Source: Candidatus Latescibacterota bacterium
Lineage (GTDB): Bacteria > Latescibacterota > UBA2968 > GCA-2709665
DNA: 64,000 bases
Direction of reading: 5' to 3'
Assembly: GCA_965219455.1 (NCBI GenBank)
Contig: OZ244744.1
Span: 2,080,001-2,144,000, forward strand
Below the pieces are notes generated by a model that was given only the letters and a program-made list of their open reading frames with translations, was not told where the DNA came from and searched no databases. Below, piece by piece: positions 12,240 to 19,474 of the stretch. Positions within the stretch are counted from its first letter, which is position 1; the number at the start of each line of letters is the position of its first letter. A program made the position numbers and the translations under genes.

Positions 12240-12412
12240 GAGCCGTTGAGAAAGTGTTTGTGAAGGTGGGGCAGACATTCCTGTCTGCCGTGCTCATTGT
12301 GCTTCTGCCGGAATGCGAACGGGAGACAGGCTTGCGCCGCCTGCACTTAGCTTGTCGAAGAGATGCCATCCGGGCGACTCGTCGGCCGAATTTTGGTGAT
12401 CTATTTTCGGGA
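12240..12412. repeat. Composite intergenic repeat cluster (GGCAGACATTCCTGTCTGCC palindrome, AGCTTGTCGAAG unit, CCGGGCGACTCG..GGCCGAATT unit)
   Basis: 12370-12410 matches the reverse complement of 32208-32247; 12330-12360 matches the reverse complement of 32330-32358. Confidence 0.6.
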
Positions 12413-12435
12413 CAGAACGCACGCGCACGGAACGT

Positions 12436-13650
12436 CTACTTCTCCATGAACGGGCCGTGCTGTTCAAGGCGTTGCAGCGTCTCTTGAAACGCCTCCGTGC
12501 CGTCGTCCTCCCACACCTCGAGGCGGATACCCCGGGTATTGCCTTCAGGGAAGCCGGTAAGGCTGGCTACGTTGGGGAAACCTTTGGTGTAGAGTCTGTT
12601 CCCGCCCGGCAGGTGCAGGATGCCGATTGTGGGAGGGATAACCGTGGGTTTGTTGGCCGCGCATTCGGCCAGGGCGTCTTCGTCGACCTCCACGCCGAGA
12701 CCGGGGCCCTCCGGTACCGGAGACGAGCCGGCCGCCACCTCGATTCGCTGTTTGACAACGTCTTCGTCGTACTGATCGTCCAGGTTTGTGGAATGGGCCA
12801 CGTTCGGAATCACGGCGCCCATGTGCAGGGCCATCGCTTTGGTAAGGGTGCCGCCCGTGAGCTGGATGACCGATGAGACATTGGCCAGTGCCGCGGCAAA
12901 GCCGCGCACGATGGTGGGGCCGATTCCGCCTTCGCCGATCATATAGGCGTCGGCGCAACCCCGGATGATTTCCTGGCCGCCACCGAGCTGAGGGACGTGC
13001 ATCAACAGAGGAAAGCTGGTCTTCTGCCGCAGCAGGCGCCACCCTTCCACGTCGGACAGTACAAGGGGATCCTCTATCATTCCGACCACGGGGGAGCCTT
13101 CCAACTCCTTGAGAATTCGCAGGACGGCGGCGAGCGGCCGGTTGTGATTGAAGTCGTAGTGCATCCTGAATCCGTGCGGCGCCACCTCCTCCACGGCTCG
13201 GGTCTGTTCAAAGACGTCGTAATAGGCGCAGGTATGGATCTTGAAGATCATATATCCCTGGTCAACCGCACGCACCACCTCTTTGGCCAGATCTTCCGGC
13301 GACGCCGGGCGGGTCCATGCCGCCACGGGCACCCGGTCACGTATCTTCTGGCCCATGAGTTTGTACGCGGGAATCTCCAGATGCTTGCCCATGGCGTCGT
13401 ACAGCGCGCCCATCAGGCCGGAATTGAGATTGGCGTTAATAAAATCGAAGGGGTCACGGTCAACGAGGTGCGCCACGGTGGATCTCTCCGGCGCCTCGCA
13501 GCGCGCGTCGCCGTACCCGACGATGCCGTTGTCCGTTGTAATTTTGAATATGGTGCGATGGTTCAGGTTGATGAACCGCGCTTTCTGATCGGCGTTCCGG
13601 TCGGCGATTCTCGGATAGATGGGGATCATTTCGATGTCGGTGATTTTCAT
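12436..13650 (-). CDS. Mandelate racemase / muconate lactonizing (enolase superfamily) enzyme
   Basis: MKITDIEMIP, TDNGIVGYGD, ALYDAMGK.L.IPAYKLMG, FKIH, DFN, EDP, PEGPGLGVEVDE. Confidence 0.88.
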   Translation of the reverse strand: MKITDIEMIPIYPRIADRNADQKARFINLNHRTIFKITTDNGIVGYGDARCEAPERSTVAHLVDRDPFDFINANLNSGLMGALYDAMGKHLEIPAYKLMGQKIRDRVPVAAWTRPASPEDLAKEVVRAVDQGYMIFKIHTCAYYDVFEQTRAVEEVAPHGFRMHYDFNHNRPLAAVLRILKELEGSPVVGMIEDPLVLSDVEGWRLLRQKTSFPLLMHVPQLGGGQEIIRGCADAYMIGEGGIGPTIVRGFAAALANVSSVIQLTGGTLTKAMALHMGAVIPNVAHSTNLDDQYDEDVVKQRIEVAAGSSPVPEGPGLGVEVDEDALAECAANKPTVIPPTIGILHLPGGNRLYTKGFPNVASLTGFPEGNTRGIRLEVWEDDGTEAFQETLQRLEQHGPFMEK

Positions 13651-13739
13651 GATGAATTCCTTTAATAACGGGATAACGGGAAGATTACGGCCTGAAATCG
13701 CGGCAATGTCCGTATATCAGGGTTGTCGAACTCCGCTCG

Positions 13740-13795
13740 TCAGACCTTCACGGGCCACGTAATATCTACGCCGGGCAGTATCCTGCGCAAGAGGG
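13740..13795 (-). pseudogene. Diverged duplicate of the last ~18 codons of the DHDPS-like gene
   Basis: Encodes LLRRILPGVDITWPVKV* versus LLRRILPGVDITRSVEV* at 14629-14684; 46/56 nt identical by manual alignment. Confidence 0.85.
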
Positions 13796-13829
13796 ATCTT
13801 AACTGGTCCGATCGCGAGTCTCTGGTGAG

Positions 13830-13871
13830 GACCTCTCCCCTCGGCCCCCTCTCCTGCGAGGAGAGGGGGAG
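13830..13871. repeat. REP-like palindrome CCCCCTCTCCT-nnn-AGGAGAGGGGG
   Basis: A near-identical copy lies at 26129-26169 and a half copy at 25993-26014. Confidence 0.75.
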
Positions 13872-13917
13872 TTGAAGGAAGTGTTGCGAAAACATTGGAG
13901 AAAGGAATCCACATATT

Positions 13918-14583
13918 ATGGCTGTAAAGGTAGGACAGATGGCGCCCAACTTCGGGGTCTCGAGCTGGGTGCAGGGCGCCCCGACCAACTTCGACCGGGA
14001 GAGGGATCACATCGTGGTGCTGGAAGTCTTCCAGGTCAATTGTCCCGGATGCTTCATGTACGCCATTCCCGATGCGATACGCGTGTACAACAGGCACACG
14101 GACGACGGGGTGCGCGTCCTTGGACTGGCCACCGCCTTTGAGGACTTTGACAAAAACACGCTTGACAACCTCAGACTCCTGGCTGAAACCGGTCAGGTGA
14201 TAGGGGAGACCGGGAGGGCACTTGCCATGAGCGGGCAGTTGCAGGAGGGAGACAGGCTGCCCTACAAGATCCCGTTTCCGCTCGGTATGGACAACCTTAC
14301 GAGGACGTCCGGCGGACCCGGCCACGAAGCGATTATGGACGTGATATACGGCCAGATACCCGACTTCGACTCGCAGCCTGAGAATTACAGGGTGCAGATC
14401 ACACAAAGGGTGAAGGACTATCTGAGGGCAAAGGAATATTCGGCCGAGACGTTTGAGAAGTTTAACCTGCGCGGAACACCGTCCACCATACTTGTCGACC
14501 GCAAGGGAGTCCTCAGGGACGTCTCTTTTGGCCGGACGGACCACCTTGAGGAGATGATCCAGGGGATCCTCGGCGAGGACTGA
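13918..14583 (+). CDS. Thioredoxin-fold redoxin (TlpA/AhpC-TSA-like, CPGC), archaeal-type
   Basis: VGQMAPNF, EVFQVNCPGC, LRGTPSTILVDRKG; RBS AAAGGA; AGG/ATA-rich codon usage. Confidence 0.88.
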   Translation: MAVKVGQMAPNFGVSSWVQGAPTNFDRERDHIVVLEVFQVNCPGCFMYAIPDAIRVYNRHTDDGVRVLGLATAFEDFDKNTLDNLRLLAETGQVIGETGRALAMSGQLQEGDRLPYKIPFPLGMDNLTRTSGGPGHEAIMDVIYGQIPDFDSQPENYRVQITQRVKDYLRAKEYSAETFEKFNLRGTPSTILVDRKGVLRDVSFGRTDHLEEMIQGILGED

Positions 14584-14628
14584 GTCACCGAGAGCGGATC
14601 TCAATCGCGGCTGCCAGGATCCCGCCCT

Positions 14629-15549
14629 TCATACTTCGACGGACCTTGTAATATCCACGCCGGGCAGTATTCGGCGCAAGAGGGTTTTTACGTGGCCGGC
14701 GGTGGATGAATCGATGTTGGCGCCGGGGTGCCGCACATAGCTGCTCCTGATCAGCCCGCGCAGTTTGAATATCTCCTTTCGGATCGCCACGCCCGGCTGC
14801 TGTTCGAAGACGATGAGCGGCAGATAGCGGCGATAAATGTCGTGCACGGCGTCGAAGTCGCTGATCCGTGCGGCCCGCACCATGGCGATCAGCACTTCGG
14901 GAAAAGCGAAGCCGGTCATGAAACCGTGGGCGCCGCGGGCCAGATCGAAACCGGCGTAGAGGGCGCCCAGGCCGGTGAGAACGGTTACCGAACGGTCCCC
15001 GATGCCATTCAAAATGGCCGTAATTCTGGGCGGGGCGGGTGTGGCCTCTTCCTTGATACACGCGACAAGCGGAATCTCGCGGATCAGACGGTGGATGAGG
15101 GAGACGGACATGTGGACCTGGGAAGAGGCGGGGTGGTCCTGTACGACCATGGGAATGGAGATGCCTTCCGCAACCTGGCTGAAGAACTCGAAGATGCGGT
15201 CTTCGTTGGGAACCGGTTCCCGCATGGGGGTGACCATCACGCCTGCCGCGCCCATGGATTCGGCCATCCGGCTGAGTTCCAGAGTCGCCCGCGTTCCGCC
15301 GTGGCTTGTTCCAACGATCACGGGGATGCGGCCGTCAAGGGCGTCCACGGCGGTCCCGATCAGACTTTTCCGCTCGTCGTCCAGCATCCGATTGGATTCA
15401 CCCAGTACGCCGATCACCGTGATGCCGTCGACCCCGACGTCGGCCATGAAGCGTACCGTCCGGTCGAAGGATTCCAGGTCGAGATCGCCCCTGTCATCAA
15501 ATGGGGTGACGAGGATGGGAAAGACGCCTTTAAATGTCACGGTCGCCAT
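14629..15549 (-). CDS. Dihydrodipicolinate synthase (DapA/NAL) family protein, probably an aldolase/dehydratase
   Basis: GVFPILVTPF, GVLGE (non-canonical GxxGE), IPVIVGT, Schiff-base Lys in IKEE; start refined to ATG 15549. Confidence 0.88.
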   Translation of the reverse strand: MATVTFKGVFPILVTPFDDRGDLDLESFDRTVRFMADVGVDGITVIGVLGESNRMLDDERKSLIGTAVDALDGRIPVIVGTSHGGTRATLELSRMAESMGAAGVMVTPMREPVPNEDRIFEFFSQVAEGISIPMVVQDHPASSQVHMSVSLIHRLIREIPLVACIKEEATPAPPRITAILNGIGDRSVTVLTGLGALYAGFDLARGAHGFMTGFAFPEVLIAMVRAARISDFDAVHDIYRRYLPLIVFEQQPGVAIRKEIFKLRGLIRSSYVRHPGANIDSSTAGHVKTLLRRILPGVDITRSVEV

Positions 15550-15745
15550 AATGGGACATTCGCCCTTTTGTCCGTCATCGTGGTATCCATTCGCAAGAAA
15601 GGTGCGGGCCGCGGAGAAAACAGGGATTCCCACCGGGCTCCGGAACGCCGGTGCCGATCGTCCGGCGGGGCTGACCGGTCTGATTCCCGAATGGTATGTT
15701 CGTGATATACGACACCCGGGGCGAGGCGTTTTTTTTGACCCGTAT

Positions 15746-18700
15746 TCAAGCCTTCAATACGTGCAGGCCGCCGTCCTCCGAACAAACGGCGATTTCAGGA
15801 ATGCCGTCTCCATCGACGTCCGCGGGGACAATATCCAGGATGGGGCCGCCGGTTTGAAAGCGGCCGATCTGGCGACCATCCGCATTGGCGAGGAGGCGCA
15901 CGGTACCATCCTCGACGCCCGCCGCGACTTCGAGTCTTCCGTCGCCGTTGAAGTCGGCCGCGGCGATGCAGCGAACGACTTCGCCGAGGTCGGCGCGCCA
16001 GTGCAATGTCCTGCCGTCGCCCTTGACGACGTAGACGTTGAAACTCATGGACGATGCGACGATCTCATCCAGGCCGTCGCCATCCATGTCGGCCATCAGA
16101 ACCTGGGTGACTTCGTCGCCCGTGTTGAATTGCGAGATAAGAGTCCCGTCGGCGTTGAGAAGGTGGACGTGGGTGTCCGCGCCGGCGAAGACGACTTCCT
16201 TCAGACCGTCGCCGTCGACGTCGCCCGCCGCGGCGCTATTGGCGCGGGGGCCCGTGGCCGGATGATAGGACCAGCGGATTTCGCCGTTCCCGTCGATGCA
16301 GTGCCAGCGGTGGTAGTCCGTTCCGGCGATAACCTCGTCCCGGCCGTCGCCATCCAGGTCGGCGGCGCAACCGGTGGACGAGGGGCGCACGGTCATCTGG
16401 CGCCAGAGTTCTTCTCCCTCGTGTGTGAAGGCGTGATAGCGCCACGATTCCACGGCGGCGATGATCTCGAGGTTGCCGTCGCCGTTGATGTCGCCGGTGA
16501 AAACCGACCGGACGACGGGATCCTGGAAGTAGAAGGGGATCTTGACGTCCCACTTCAACTCCCCCCTCGCGTCGAGGACGTACACACGGGTGTCTTCCGA
16601 CCCGGCGATGATTTCCGGCAGGCCGTCGTTTTCCAGGTCTGCGGTCCACACGGAGCGCACGACGCCACCGGTGGGATAGCGCCAGAGAGAATGACCCTCT
16701 TTATATGCGTGGACGGACCGTGTGCGGCCGCCGGCGATGACCTCATCCTTACCGTCGCCGTCCAGATCCGCGGCCTGTACGGACAGCAAAGCGCTGTCTT
16801 CCCTGTGAGACCAGAGCGCGGGTAGATCCGGAATGCGGCGCCTCCTGCGCGAGGTCGGAAAGCGGGGCGTGATATGTGGTCTGGTCTTTTTGGCTGCGGC
16901 GCGGCGGAGTCCCGTGAGGGCCGGCGGGATCAGCGCGACGTCGTGCCTGCCGCCGGTCGCACGGAACGTGACGGCGCCGTTAGAGACGTCGGCGGCGATG
17001 GGCCTGCCGTCCAATTCGACCTCCGTCCTGCCTCCGGAGGACAGCGTGATCGTCGTCGGACCGGAGGTGACGAGAGTGCCCCGCGCCGCCGAGAGATCGT
17101 ATTCGAAGGACACGGGGCGATCGCTCTTGAATGTAACGCCTTCCCAGGAAACTTCCGTGCCGTCGACAACGGCAATGGTACGGGGAGAAATCTGAAACTG
17201 GGCGGCCGCGACACTGGGGCCCGACGGCAGCGCCGTCGCCCTGTGGGTCTCGCCGACGCCGGCAAAGGCGGTTTCCGGTCCGCCATCGATGCGTACGGCG
17301 GTCTCGGCAACCTGCGTCATTCTGAACTTCAGGGGACTGCAATAGAGAAGGTTGAAAAAACGATAGGCCTCCCCTTTTTTGAGATGCACGTCAACGATCT
17401 GCTGAAGTACGCGTACGATGGGTTCGGCGTGAGTATAGCGATCCCAGTTCTTTCCGGTTTCCGGGTCGTCCTCGAGTTTGATCCGGGGACCCGTCAGGCC
17501 ATGAATGAAGAATTGCTCGCCATTTTGTTCCACGGCCAGGCCGCCGTGGCGGGGTTGCACGTTGCCCAGCGTGTGCCAGACGGCGCGCAAGCTGTAGTCC
17601 GCTTCGTCCTGAGCTTCCATTTCATCGATAACGAGAAAATAGGCCCCACGACTCCACAGGATGTTCCGGCGCCAGTCCACGCCGCTGTACGATCGAAGCG
17701 TTGTCTGCGAGAATCCCGAATTCACGTTGGCGGAAAATTGTTCGAGTTCCGCAAAGGGCGGTATTTCGGCGGATTGCCCGTTTCTGAAAATGAGGACGCC
17801 GTTGTGAAATTTGGGCAGCGATTTGATGTAGTCGCAGTCAGCCAGCCAGATACGGTTGTTCTGGGTCAGGCGGCAGATCGAGTTGCCGTCGTAATGTTTG
17901 TGGCCGCCGTTCGAAAGGCCGTCGAGGAAGAGATATTGGTTCTGAGGGTCGAAACCATCCCGGAAGACGACCTTGTCGAAGGTCTTGTTCAAAGGCAGAT
18001 GGTCGCCGCCGCTGTTGGAAGCGTAATAGAGCGAATCCACCGGAAAGACCTGGGCGCCCTCCATGTCCGCAGGTTCGACCGCATCGACGTCCCGGCTGTG
18101 TTCATATGGATGCGCGTTGGCGGCCATGGCTTTTTTCTTGTCGAGCATCCACTGGTAGCGGCCGTCGCCCGTCACGCAGACCATGGCTCGCAGGTAGGGT
18201 ACTTCAGTCCACGTTCCGAACGGGGAGGCCGTGTCTCCGTTGGGCACGGCGCAGCCCAGGTTATCCGTGGTAAGGATGGCGTAATCGCCGGCGCGCTGCG
18301 CATTGCCGGTATCGAAGAACGTCATATCACCCGAACTGAGGGTGTAGCGCATTGCGTGGAAGTGCGTGCGCCACTGGTAGTGGCCGCAGTCCTCCAGGGG
18401 TTTGAACGCGTTGACCTGCACCCTGAAACATTTCTCAGCCAGTGCCAGCCATTTGTAAGCCTGCGCGGCTTTGTAGTACTTTTTGAAATAGACGCCGGCA
18501 TAGTGCAGGCCCAGGGCGGCGTACGTGGCGTGATTGTGACGGACGTGCTCATTGTCGACGTTGCCGACGCGCGATACGCAGTCTGTGATGAACTCGAACA
18601 GGATGCGGGTAATCCGCAGGCGGTCTTCAGCGGAGATGACGGGGCTCTCTTCCACGAGATCCCATCCCGGCATGACGTACTGCAGCGCGAAGTCCGCGTC

Positions 18701-19432
18701 GAAACCCCACACGCTGCCATAATTGTCGGGATCGGACTTGACATGGTCGTACATCCGGTAGACCAGTCGTTTGTAAATCTCCGCGTACACGTTGTTTCCG
18801 GTGAGCCCGTAGTGCAGGCCCCGCTGCCCGATGCGGCCCCACAACCCGGTATGGCAGCCTCGTTTGAGGTCTTCTTCGGCTTCCGCCATCTCGGCCTCGA
18901 GGTCCGGTTCTTCGGGGATGCCTGCGTCGTGACGGGCATCCGGACCCCACTTTACATCGAACATGGGACCGAGAGTGAGCGTCGATTCCCCCTTGAGGCG
19001 CTCAAGTAAGAGACCTGTGGCGGTTTCGACTCCTGATATATCGCTGCCGAAAAGGCCAACGGCGTTTTTGCCGTTGCCCCAGGGATCGTGGATGGTGTGC
19101 AGAAGATGTCCGCCGTTTCCGGGGTAGTGGTCGTCGGCGGGGGTGTAGCTGTAGCCGTAAAGCCGGAATATCGCCCGGCTGGTGTTCAGGTTGCCCAGAA
19201 GGATGAGGTGCCTCCGGGGTGTCCTGGCGACCGCGGCGTGGTCGAGGATGGGAAGGTCGGCGCCGGAAAGGTCGTGGATTTTTTTCTGGACAGACTCGGC
19301 AAGGGCGGCGTACCGGTCATCCGACGGACGCACAATGGCGGCCATGGGGCGCCCGTCTTCCACCAGGTTGGTGTCCGGGTACCGCGGTTTGGGCTTCGTC
19401 AGATTCTTGAGGGACATCCTTCGCGACGGCAT
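15746..19432 (-). CDS. Multidomain protein: GH20b-like N-domain + heparinase II/III-like core + C-terminal FG-GAP/VCBS-type beta-propeller
   Basis: LVEDGRPMAAIV..LSGADLPI..HLILLGN; HNH; GGHKHYDGNSI..FHNGVLI; eight DxDGDG-like Ca-binding repeats in the last ~350 aa. Start uncertain (19417-19450). Confidence 0.8.
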   Translation of the reverse strand: MPSRRMSLKNLTKPKPRYPDTNLVEDGRPMAAIVRPSDDRYAALAESVQKKIHDLSGADLPILDHAAVARTPRRHLILLGNLNTSRAIFRLYGYSYTPADDHYPGNGGHLLHTIHDPWGNGKNAVGLFGSDISGVETATGLLLERLKGESTLTLGPMFDVKWGPDARHDAGIPEEPDLEAEMAEAEEDLKRGCHTGLWGRIGQRGLHYGLTGNNVYAEIYKRLVYRMYDHVKSDPDNYGSVWGFDADFALQYVMPGWDLVEESPVISAEDRLRITRILFEFITDCVSRVGNVDNEHVRHNHATYAALGLHYAGVYFKKYYKAAQAYKWLALAEKCFRVQVNAFKPLEDCGHYQWRTHFHAMRYTLSSGDMTFFDTGNAQRAGDYAILTTDNLGCAVPNGDTASPFGTWTEVPYLRAMVCVTGDGRYQWMLDKKKAMAANAHPYEHSRDVDAVEPADMEGAQVFPVDSLYYASNSGGDHLPLNKTFDKVVFRDGFDPQNQYLFLDGLSNGGHKHYDGNSICRLTQNNRIWLADCDYIKSLPKFHNGVLIFRNGQSAEIPPFAELEQFSANVNSGFSQTTLRSYSGVDWRRNILWSRGAYFLVIDEMEAQDEADYSLRAVWHTLGNVQPRHGGLAVEQNGEQFFIHGLTGPRIKLEDDPETGKNWDRYTHAEPIVRVLQQIVDVHLKKGEAYRFFNLLYCSPLKFRMTQVAETAVRIDGGPETAFAGVGETHRATALPSGPSVAAAQFQISPRTIAVVDGTEVSWEGVTFKSDRPVSFEYDLSAARGTLVTSGPTTITLSSGGRTEVELDGRPIAADVSNGAVTFRATGGRHDVALIPPALTGLRRAAAKKTRPHITPRFPTSRRRRRIPDLPALWSHREDSALLSVQAADLDGDGKDEVIAGGRTRSVHAYKEGHSLWRYPTGGVVRSVWTADLENDGLPEIIAGSEDTRVYVLDARGELKWDVKIPFYFQDPVVRSVFTGDINGDGNLEIIAAVESWRYHAFTHEGEELWRQMTVRPSSTGCAADLDGDGRDEVIAGTDYHRWHCIDGNGEIRWSYHPATGPRANSAAAGDVDGDGLKEVVFAGADTHVHLLNADGTLISQFNTGDEVTQVLMADMDGDGLDEIVASSMSFNVYVVKGDGRTLHWRADLGEVVRCIAAADFNGDGRLEVAAGVEDGTVRLLANADGRQIGRFQTGGPILDIVPADVDGDGIPEIAVCSEDGGLHVLKA

Positions 19433-19474
19433 GGCGGGCTCCGGGGGCAAAAGTCGAACCGGGCAAGTTTCTCT

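Follow-up and report, generated by a model that had tools for sequence, protein, structure and literature searches.

Members of the Nitrosopumilaceae encode a 221-residue protein that NCBI and UniRef name 'TlpA family protein disulfide reductase' or 'alkyl hydroperoxide reductase-thiol specific antioxidant' (P0084 in Nitrosopumilus maritimus). According to a passage in Abby et al. (2020; PMC7554672), thiol oxidoreductases of the Trx/Dsb family were repeatedly acquired along the lineages of ammonia-oxidising archaea (AOA) and may act on reactive nitrogen species. Documented interdomain transfers of Thaumarchaeota, such as those in two papers (PMC4122925, PMC3564930), concern single genes exchanged with bacteria or eukaryotes and recognised from nested phylogeny; the two papers describe genes brought into archaea. 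Here we describe a gene for a redoxin of the Nitrosopumilaceae type (13918–14583) in a 64,000-nucleotide stretch of DNA from a Candidatus Latescibacterota bacterium (contig OZ244744.1, positions 2,080,001 to 2,144,000), which is referred to below as the window and is part of a single closed 5.84-Mb contig of 58% GC. This case likewise concerns a single gene whose origin is read from a nested phylogeny, but here the gene moved out of an archaeon into sponge-associated bacteria, with an identifiable insertion scar and with secondary spread.

The window protein shares with its Nitrosopumilaceae counterparts the length, a full-length collinear alignment at 70–75% identity (72% with P0084), the CPGC motif, the GTPS loop and a long insert. 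It differs from them in the GC content of its gene (0.58 versus 0.32–0.35), in a Shine-Dalgarno leader in place of a TATA-like box, in its bacterial context and in a shift from lysine to arginine (7 Lys and 16 Arg versus ~18 and 5). Passage of a Nitrosopumilaceae-type redoxin from an archaeon to a bacterium is well supported by the data below. The whole course of events, namely a single transfer from Nitrosopumilaceae to bacteria, secondary spread, insertion at the 3′ end of a DHDPS-family gene and retention of a TlpA/ResA-like oxidoreductase, is in our judgement likely.

The bacterial redoxins nest within the archaeal tree

A protein search with the redoxin gave 7,479 matches, the top ones 81–97% identical and located on multi-megabase contigs. 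In a species-level scan, with one genome per species, 554 of 599 pattern matches encode a relative, and the best 80 were compared. Among these best 80 of 554, 70 are labelled Nitrosopumilus, Nitrosarchaeum, Nitrosopumilaceae, Thaumarchaeota or archaeon (69–75% identity), eight are chromosomes labelled Latescibacterota or Latescibacteria (81–91%) and two are labelled 'bacterium' only. Together with the full-length match to N. maritimus, the predominance of archaeal labels bears out the likeness to Nitrosopumilaceae redoxins that an initial annotation of the window, made from the sequence, had put forward. Identity to more than 500 Nitrosopumilaceae species records is 70–75%.

The gene is widespread in the archaeal class Nitrososphaeria, where 229 of 301 sampled genomes carry it (226 of 298 without three genomes flagged unpublished, G400, G451 and G301), with identity grading from 74% down to ~55%. 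The host phylum Latescibacterota has it in 16 of 168 genomes and in two of 14 families: in eight of 15 genomes of the window's genus (g1), in none of six from four other genera of the same family (f1) and in eight of 76 from a second family (f4). It is absent from all 70 genomes of the other 12 Latescibacterota families scanned. Across 1.84 billion cluster representatives, 35 match at E ≤ 1e-30 and 652 at E ≤ 1e-3. The 221-residue form is a narrow family and the redoxin is a core gene of the ammonia-oxidising archaea. At an archaeal locus (L015) the neighbours encode Rad50-like, Kazal/plastocyanin-like and HEAT-repeat proteins, a 191-residue protein of no known type and ribosomal protein L15e, with no obvious redox partner among them; the HEAT-repeat gene lies upstream of the redoxin gene and the L15e gene downstream.

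A maximum-likelihood tree was built under LG+C20+F+G4 from 61 distinct proteins, comprising 15 from Latescibacterota, one from genome G169, 29 from crown archaea (thinned at 90% identity) and 16 from distant class members; a truncated copy from genome G102 was excluded. G169 was reached through a genome-collection locus and lies outside the 168 genomes of the phylum scan. All bacterial copies, the 15 from Latescibacterota and that of G169, form one clade with 100/100 support and a stem of 0.25. This clade lies within a 95/89 clade of 45 rows whose remainder is solely Nitrosopumilus and Nitrosarchaeum; the GC-rich and more distant class members branch outside. The position of the bacterial clade in the crown group is a polytomy. 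Among f4 copies whose order the tree does not resolve, the eight from g1 group together (99/96). Since the bacterial copies are one clade inside the archaeal tree, passage of the gene from archaeon to bacterium, as the initial annotation had proposed, is well supported. Several features that mark interdomain transfer are found together here: nesting within the diversity of the donor, a patchy distribution in the recipient against a wide one in the donor, and an empty site and scar, the last accompanied by deletion remnants (see below). In the scheme we propose, one copy would have crossed into bacteria from a member of the Nitrosopumilaceae, most likely of a GC-rich sponge-associated lineage, and every bacterial copy would descend from that single entry.

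Source labels of the metagenome-assembled genomes involved are inconsistent. Protein P0122, which is the copy at locus L095 in genome G159, is labelled 'Gemmatimonadaceae bacterium' by its source, whereas the genome collection puts an identical copy in the host's class.

Isoleucine and arginine codons and the donor lineage

The codon usage of the redoxin gene was compared with a host reference of 3,543 gene models, based on open reading frames (ORFs) of the 5.84-Mb genome and obtained by iterative codon scoring. The initial annotation had counted 10 AGG or AGA (AGR) codons among 16 for arginine, nine of them AGG, and five ATA among 12 for isoleucine. These counts are exact; the remaining arginine codons are four CGC and two CGG and the remaining isoleucine codons five ATC and two ATT. 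Genome-wide, AGR makes up 19% of arginine codons and ATA 11% of isoleucine codons, against which the counts in the redoxin gene have binomial p values of 1.6e-4 and 6.5e-3, respectively. The AGR fraction of the redoxin gene is reached by 10 of 3,509 genes, its ATA fraction by 23 of 3,480, and both by two of 3,449. The GC content at third codon positions (GC3) is 0.76, the genome median being 0.70, and the fit of overall synonymous usage to the host is ordinary, at the 75th percentile among genes of similar length; the codon anomaly is thus confined to arginine and isoleucine.

When the host codon table is set against a GC-rich thaumarchaeal one, the log-likelihood ratio (host over archaeal) is −13.7 for the redoxin gene, compared with a median of +15.7 for 574 native genes of 180–260 residues, 1.9% of which fall below 0; by this ratio per codon the gene ranks fourth of 3,543. 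It is the sole gene among 3,449 to combine an AGR fraction of at least.4, an ATA fraction of at least.3 and a GC3 of at least.7. No second gene with GC-rich archaeal usage emerged: the other 17 of the 18 genes with AGR ≥ 0.4 and ATA ≥ 0.3 are simply AT-rich (GC3 0.46–0.67), and the other genes with top likelihood ratios have an extreme GC3 (0.88–0.93), which fits any GC-rich table. The 17 AT-rich genes (for example 5497559–5498011 and 1785984–1786499 in genome coordinates) are probably recent AT-rich acquisitions or mobile genes, and their pattern is unlike that of the redoxin gene.

Table 1. Isoleucine and arginine codon fractions in redoxin genes and in host and archaeal genomic DNA.
Sequences	Ile ATA/ATC/ATT	Arg AGG
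f4 and G169 redoxin copies	.46/.44/.09	.53
Redoxin orthologs from six GC-rich class members	.44/.48/.08	.46
Low-GC crown archaeal redoxin copies	.19/.20/.61	.16 (AGA.73)
g1 redoxin copies	.26/.53/.21	.42
Whole genome of the window (G000), 3,543 gene models	.11/.59/.30	.12
Four 20-kb f4 stretches	.13/.65/.22	.10
Six 20-kb stretches of GC-rich class genomes	.36/.54/.11	.25

The isoleucine and arginine usage of the bacterial copies is like that of GC-rich thaumarchaea and unlike that of low-GC Nitrosopumilus or of the hosts (Table 1), which favours a GC-rich donor; given the transfer, we lean towards a GC-rich thaumarchaeon as its source. In the part of PMC6697440 that deals with them, sponge-derived Thaumarchaeota are described as GC-rich, at 53.8% versus 33.4% in free-living marine ones, and the GC-rich group includes Nitrosopumilus species of 48–53% GC; the sponge-associated Nitrosopumilaceae named there range over 48–66% GC. 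An approximately unbiased (AU) test did not reject union of the bacteria with the L140–L142 lineage, which includes GC-rich members (p = 0.27). A 173-row FastTree places a metagenomic protein of unassigned origin (P0032), which is encoded on a 2.4-kb contig and has 80% identity to the window protein, as the sister of the bacterial clade, and a cluster look-up of ten proteins 73–89% identical to the window protein returned no archaeal names.

Several observations weigh against a GC-rich donor. The GC-rich codon table derives from six 20-kb stretches with heuristic ORF picking. The bacterial clade lies among low-GC Nitrosopumilus and Nitrosarchaeum, and the sampled GC-rich lineages lie outside. 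Changes from lysine codons to AGG and from AGA to AGG are possible under GC pressure inside a bacterium, so that only the isoleucine pattern discriminates between donors. No archaeal sequence closer than 75% occurs among the best 80 of the 554 species-level stretches, and a metagenome scan at the Joint Genome Institute (JGI) seeded with P0032 gave 80 loci, all at most 76% identical and of 29–36% GC, which look like ordinary planktonic Nitrosopumilus. The proposed GC-rich donor lineage itself is unobserved. The GC-rich thaumarchaeal donor of the initial annotation, which gave a Cenarchaeum-like sponge co-symbiont as its example, is supported but not proven: the codon usage equals that of GC-rich class members, and a 329-nt contig identical to 14562–14889 comes from an RNA run labelled sponge metagenome, but neither the sequence searches nor the tree place a particular archaeal lineage next to the bacteria.

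The strongest competitor is an ordinary AT-rich marine Nitrosopumilus as donor, the AGG- and ATA-rich usage having arisen in the bacteria during a drive to high GC, in which lysine AAA/AAG and arginine AGA turned into AGG and ATA was left stranded with no synonymous transition open to it. The closest named archaeal sequences (73–75% identity) do have a gene GC of 0.32–0.35, and the crown group that encloses the bacterial clade at 95/89 is low in GC. Moreover, six of the ten AGR codons stand where crown archaea have lysine AAA/AAG and two where they have AGA, three of the six CGN codons lie at crown-archaeal glutamine CAA sites, all of which agrees with any move to high GC, and the g1 copies are drifting toward host usage (ATA.26, CGN.54). 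The isoleucine codons, however, behave otherwise. From low-GC crown archaea to f4 and G169 copies ATA rises from.19 to.46 and ATT drops from.61 to.09. Nevertheless, ATT (.22–.30) is commoner than ATA (.11–.13) in the hosts. The bacterial copies share ATA at at least five isoleucine sites that are mostly ATT or ATC in crown archaea (columns 50, 54, 140, 148 and 163); at columns 144 and 192 the crown archaea are led by ATA, with 4/8. The shared change to ATA is a transversion away from host preference, and its gain at crown-archaeal ATT/ATC sites does not fit evolution under host preferences. It matches instead the genome-wide habit of GC-rich class members (ATA.36, ATT.11, AGG.25). An AT-rich donor is therefore unlikely, and a GC-rich thaumarchaeon remains the preferred one.

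Insertion beside an enolase-superfamily gene and later loss

The redoxin gene lies opposed to both neighbours in a block of genes of polysaccharide and sugar-acid catabolism that encodes heparinase II/III-like, enolase-superfamily, DHDPS-family, GFO/IDH/MocA and FG-GAP/carrageenase-like beta-propeller proteins (Table 2). Both the orientation and the setting in a sugar-catabolism locus agree with the initial annotation. The enolase-superfamily protein also has a galactonate dehydratase-like match in NCBIfam that lies below cutoff.

Table 2. Layout of the redoxin locus in window coordinates.
Feature	Position	Strand	Remarks
Enolase-superfamily gene (sugar-acid dehydratase-like)	12436–13650	−	native flank; Pfam MR_MLE_C 1.7e-20
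Intergenic DNA 5′ of the enolase gene	13651–13732		native; homology to insert-free genomes reaches 13680
Relic of the DHDPS-family gene 3′ end, left repeat arm	13733–13806	−	last ~20 codons and stop
Host interspersed repeat, REP/MITE-like	13825–13895		GC-rich palindrome 13833–13871; between relic and redoxin gene
22-nt leader	13896–13917	+	AAGGA-type ribosome-binding site; 5′ limit of unit common to all bacterial copies
Redoxin gene	13918–14583	+	221-residue ORF; thioredoxin fold; C42-P-G-C45; G186-T-P188 cis-Pro loop; thaumarchaeal origin
Right repeat arm	14622–14695	−	functional 3′ end of DHDPS-family gene
DHDPS-family gene (aldolase/dehydratase)	14629–15633	−	native; convergent with redoxin gene; Pfam DHDPS 1.1e-35
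FG-GAP/heparinase-like/carrageenase-like beta-propeller gene	15746–19450	−	native flank; right side of site in insert-free genomes

A 74-nt direct repeat with 78% identity between its arms brackets the gene, which accounts for the limits, 13740 and 14684, that the initial annotation had drawn. The left arm has no further occurrence in the genome beyond its right-hand partner, and the relic it represents is also found in the redoxin-only genomes and in G056. All eight g1 copies sit directly upstream of the enolase gene, whose start codon forms the left side of the insertion site and whose orthologs occur in 15 of 15 genus genomes (82–98% nucleotide identity). In two other genera of the family an ortholog of the enolase gene stands beside an ortholog of the DHDPS gene (both 71–72% nucleotide identity) with no redoxin, and this adjacency indicates that DHDPS–enolase is the ancestral arrangement. 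The redoxin gene is inserted at the 3′ end of the DHDPS gene, and the 74-nt duplication left the latter whole. In this genus, insertion would thus have taken place within an ancestral sugar-acid operon of DHDPS and enolase genes.

Five g1 genomes have a bare, empty spacer of 63–64 nt at the site, and in five redoxin-free genomes the sequence of 13300–13680 is joined within 63–114 nt to that of 15750 and beyond. What remains in G056 is the relic together with 51 nt from the 3′ end of the redoxin gene, and in G050 only the spacer that is found downstream of the redoxin in redoxin-only genomes. In a tree of the enolase gene the redoxin-bearing genomes are scattered over the unresolved base of the genus, and G050 and G056 nest with redoxin-bearing G053, so that at least one loss is certain. 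After insertion the redoxin gene would have been inherited mostly vertically; eight species keep it, under purifying selection, and at least two have deleted it. Loss has also affected the DHDPS-family gene, which is intact in three of 15 g1 genomes (G000, G057 and G058), present as fragments in G051 and absent in the rest; the window locus and loci L006, L007, L010, L093 and L094 show the sugar-acid operon being dismantled independently of the redoxin.

The ratio of synonymous divergence (dS) in the redoxin gene to that in the enolase gene is 0.93–2.6 in 26 of 28 pairs of g1 genomes, which puts the age of the redoxin level with that of the genus radiation as sampled. Two pairs depart from this range, G000–G058 (0.27) and G058–G057 (0.65). 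Some divergences do not fit simple vertical descent and weigh against this history. For G000–G058 the redoxin dS is 0.08 versus 0.31 for the enolase gene, and dS is just 0.25 between G000 and G141, a genome of the other family, f4. The low dS of G000–G058, G058–G057 and G000–G141 hints at later allele exchange. The ratio of nonsynonymous to synonymous divergence (dN/dS) among bacterial copies is 0.13–0.30 in 12 of 13 pairs, with the closest pair at 0.53, a pattern of purifying selection that indicates a functional redoxin in bacteria.

The initial annotation had called the transfer recent and little ameliorated. This is wrong for age and GC content: GC3 is host-like, the gene is shared by two families and at least six contexts, its dS is no lower than that of the adjacent native gene in those 26 of 28 pairs, and host repeats have since settled beside it. 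The arginine and isoleucine codon usage did survive.

Proposed spread among bacteria as a gene-only unit

DNA homology between the window and the copies of f4 and G169 is confined to 13896–14592. The unit shared by bacteria consists of the coding sequence, a leader of 17–22 nt and at most 9 nt past the stop codon, with homology ending 1–9 nt after the stop. Four g25 genomes share one context and g21, g23, g31 and G169 have one each, which with that of g1 gives six. The copy in G102 (L096) is 5′-truncated by a deletion of ~380 bp relative to its congener G103 (L089) and looks like a pseudogene in the making. No inverted repeats around the gene, no attC-like element and no recombinase, integrase or transposase travelling with the unit were found within the ±5 kb inspected; the neighbours here and at locus L003 are metabolic genes. 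After the initial crossing, a gene-only unit of ~0.7 kb would have passed between co-occurring Latescibacterota and would also have reached at least one genome outside the phylum sample.

Across contexts, 15 of 16 bacterial copies have kept the 22-nt leader, with homology starting at 13896–13901. Where the bacterial copies carry this AAGGA-type leader, archaeal copies have an A/T-rich TATA-like box ~25–35 nt upstream. The mean identity between the bacterial leader and the archaeal upstream regions (L012–L157) is 0.40, higher than in any of 200 shuffles (mean 0.37, maximum 0.39), and the leader aligns, with the same spacing, with an A-rich stretch just past the archaeal TATA-like box. This faint resemblance could mean that the gene brought its leader with it and that remodelling followed, in which A-to-G changes may have turned part of the archaeal leader into the bacterial ribosome-binding site.

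These data also bear on the direction of transfer. The 221-residue redoxin might be bacterial and have been given to archaea, or might be ancient and vertically inherited in both domains; shorter bacterial relatives do exist in the 160-residue proteins 3lor (E = 4.5e-18) and 3eyt (E = 1.4e-14), and the tree was rooted on the farthest members of the class by choice rather than by inference, which weighs against our own reading. Neither version accounts for the distribution, with 229 of 301 archaeal-class genomes in graded divergence against 16 of 168 genomes and two of 14 families in the host phylum. Nor do they account for a single tight bacterial clade nested among Nitrosopumilaceae, for homology that is confined to the gene in unrelated bacterial contexts, or for an empty site and an insertion scar in the genus. 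We regard both as very improbable and retain transfer from archaeon to bacterium.

Continuity of the locus in independent data

Parts of the stretch are held in 20 public runs from 12 studies. In two DNA runs from different studies, contigs show 0 differences over 13400–13838 and 14504–15000, and short-read contigs break at the high-copy repeat. An RNA-library contig of 2,567 nt spans the enolase, redoxin and DHDPS genes in a related strain and crosses both junctions. Run contigs of this kind are evidence that the stretch is present and continuous, not that it is transcribed; X15 and X16, contigs from RNA libraries which cover parts of the locus and for which strandedness is absent or uncertain, could be contaminating DNA, a point to be set against the evidence from RNA runs.

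The idea that an archaeal fragment was mis-joined to a bacterial contig in assembly or binning, for which one could cite the probable sharing of samples by archaea and these bacteria and a summed contig depth that in two DNA runs is 2–6 times as high over the gene as over the flanks, can be dismissed, given a closed chromosome-size contig, a bacterial GC of 0.58 and GC3 of 0.76 versus 0.32–0.35 in the closest archaeal copies, eight separately assembled genomes with the gene at the same site and others with deletion remnants, contigs of other studies that bridge the junctions (error-free independent DNA contigs the right one, the RNA-library contig both), and copies in other contexts of co-occurring bacteria that explain the excess depth.

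Predicted fold and function of the redoxin

The AlphaFold2 (AF2) model of the protein, built from a 36-sequence alignment, has a thioredoxin-fold core and a mean pLDDT of 93.2. Foldseek returned at least 500 PDB matches at E ≤ 0.001, the best being 3eyt and 3lor, followed by the C-terminal domain of DipZ and ResA. In the model, C42-P-G-C45 stands at the start of helix 43–63. Residues Q39, N41, C42, T72, F74, N80, D125, G186-T187-P188 and D194 are invariant in the 36 aligned sequences, at least 90% of which also have C45; in a comparison of 45 bacterial and archaeal copies the CPGC motif was unchanged throughout. The N-terminus, as read from the sequence and alignment without a predictor, enters the conserved core directly, with no hydrophobic stretch.

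The closest structures, 3lor (a Corynebacterium glutamicum 'thiol-disulfide isomerase') and 3eyt (SPOA0173), are structural-genomics proteins of ~160 residues that are uncharacterised by their entry titles. They share with the window protein the …FQ..CPGC… active-site signature and a C-terminal GTPS…DRKG (Foldseek E ~1e-12, TM 0.84–0.86 on target) at ~25% identity, and differ in being without ~66 of its residues, query 90–172 corresponding to 17 residues in 3lor. TlpA, ResA and the C-terminal domain of DipZ, which act as extracytoplasmic thiol-disulfide reductases in cytochrome and copper-site maturation, share the thioredoxin fold, the CxxC motif and the cis-Pro loop (Foldseek E 3e-9 to 1e-6), and NCBI names homologs of the window protein 'TlpA family'. 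TlpA, ResA and DsbE are extracytoplasmic, with a signal peptide or membrane anchor. Unlike TlpA, ResA and DipZ, the window protein has no visible signal peptide or anchor and carries the large extra insert. Peroxiredoxins have their peroxidatic cysteine in a P…T/S-x-x-C motif and a conserved arginine. In the window protein Q39-V-N41 precede C42, with no Thr or Ser at −3, and peroxiredoxin structures rank lower (E ~1e-6, TM 0.45–0.48 on the model and 0.60–0.62 on target).

The lack of an N-terminal hydrophobic segment, the lack of Thr/Ser at −3 and the missed family cutoffs keep the protein out of the curated TlpA/ResA families and of the peroxiredoxins. It is predicted to be cytoplasmic and, by its model, to work like a TlpA/ResA-type disulfide reductase without being a member of those families. 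Low profile scores count against the TlpA/ResA-like reading: the Pfam models AhpC-TSA and Redoxin give 24.2 and 20.3 bits, below their cutoffs of 26 and 26.6 and over residues 5–74 only, and NCBIfam ResA gives 20.7 bits against a cutoff of 170. Many homologs carry precomputed PF00578/PF08534 matches. In the mechanism we envisage, the Cys42 thiolate would attack a disulfide or sulfenate of the substrate, Cys45 would resolve the intermediate, and the thioredoxin system of the cell would re-reduce the resulting disulfide; the insert of ~66 residues, which caps the fold, would probably set the choice of substrate. A role in redox or oxidative-stress defence, as suggested by the initial annotation, is plausible from the fold and the CxxC motif.

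Gene flow from archaea to bacteria

The transfer is a well-documented further instance of an already known kind of event. A full-text literature search, supplements excluded, found no account of it, and the word 'horizontal' is absent from a paper on sponge Latescibacterota. Gene flow from archaea to bacteria is documented far less often than the reverse, and few cases combine a donor clade and a single entry with an insertion scar and deletion remnants, together with secondary spread and surviving donor codon usage. The copies also provide a natural time series of amelioration, in which those of one family keep archaeal-style isoleucine and arginine codons and those of this genus are half converted. 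The redoxin is a near-universal, unstudied AOA enzyme; its retention under purifying selection in unrelated heterotrophs suggests a function independent of ammonia oxidation, and the bacterial carriers offer a second group of hosts for its study.

Should the donor have been a GC-rich thaumarchaeote of a sponge, the locus would be direct genomic evidence of cross-domain gene exchange within one animal microbiome. A bolder version has bacterial symbionts in sponge tissue adopting a core stress-defence enzyme of their ammonia-oxidising archaeal co-symbionts, passing the 0.7-kb unit across families and phyla in the manner of a cassette without a recognisable mobile element, and using it for protection against reactive nitrogen or oxygen species generated by the archaea. 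If this were true, the transfer would be an adaptation to living beside the donor; at present it is a speculation to which we give little credence.

Repeats and other features of the genome

The interspersed repeat between the relic and the redoxin gene has 51 blastn matches in the genome, 14 of them of at least 35 nt, and the summed contig depth over it is 1318 versus ~25 beside it. Related strains have 122 different letters in place of 13811–13895, and the repeat is confined to this genome's version of the locus. A second short-repeat family, with 57 genome matches, lies at 12360–12420 between the heparinase-like and enolase genes. Both repeat families are native to the genus and recur at 82–95% identity in five sister genomes. 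A promoter and terminator scan of 13500–14800 gave 0 promoter-like and 0 terminator-like sites, a scan that is uninformative for this phylum.

Outside the window, at G000:C1:1420761–1453918, a cluster of huge ORFs (1,324–2,394 residues) has a GC3 of 0.82–0.93 and a codon usage far off the genome norm, and may be a separately acquired island.

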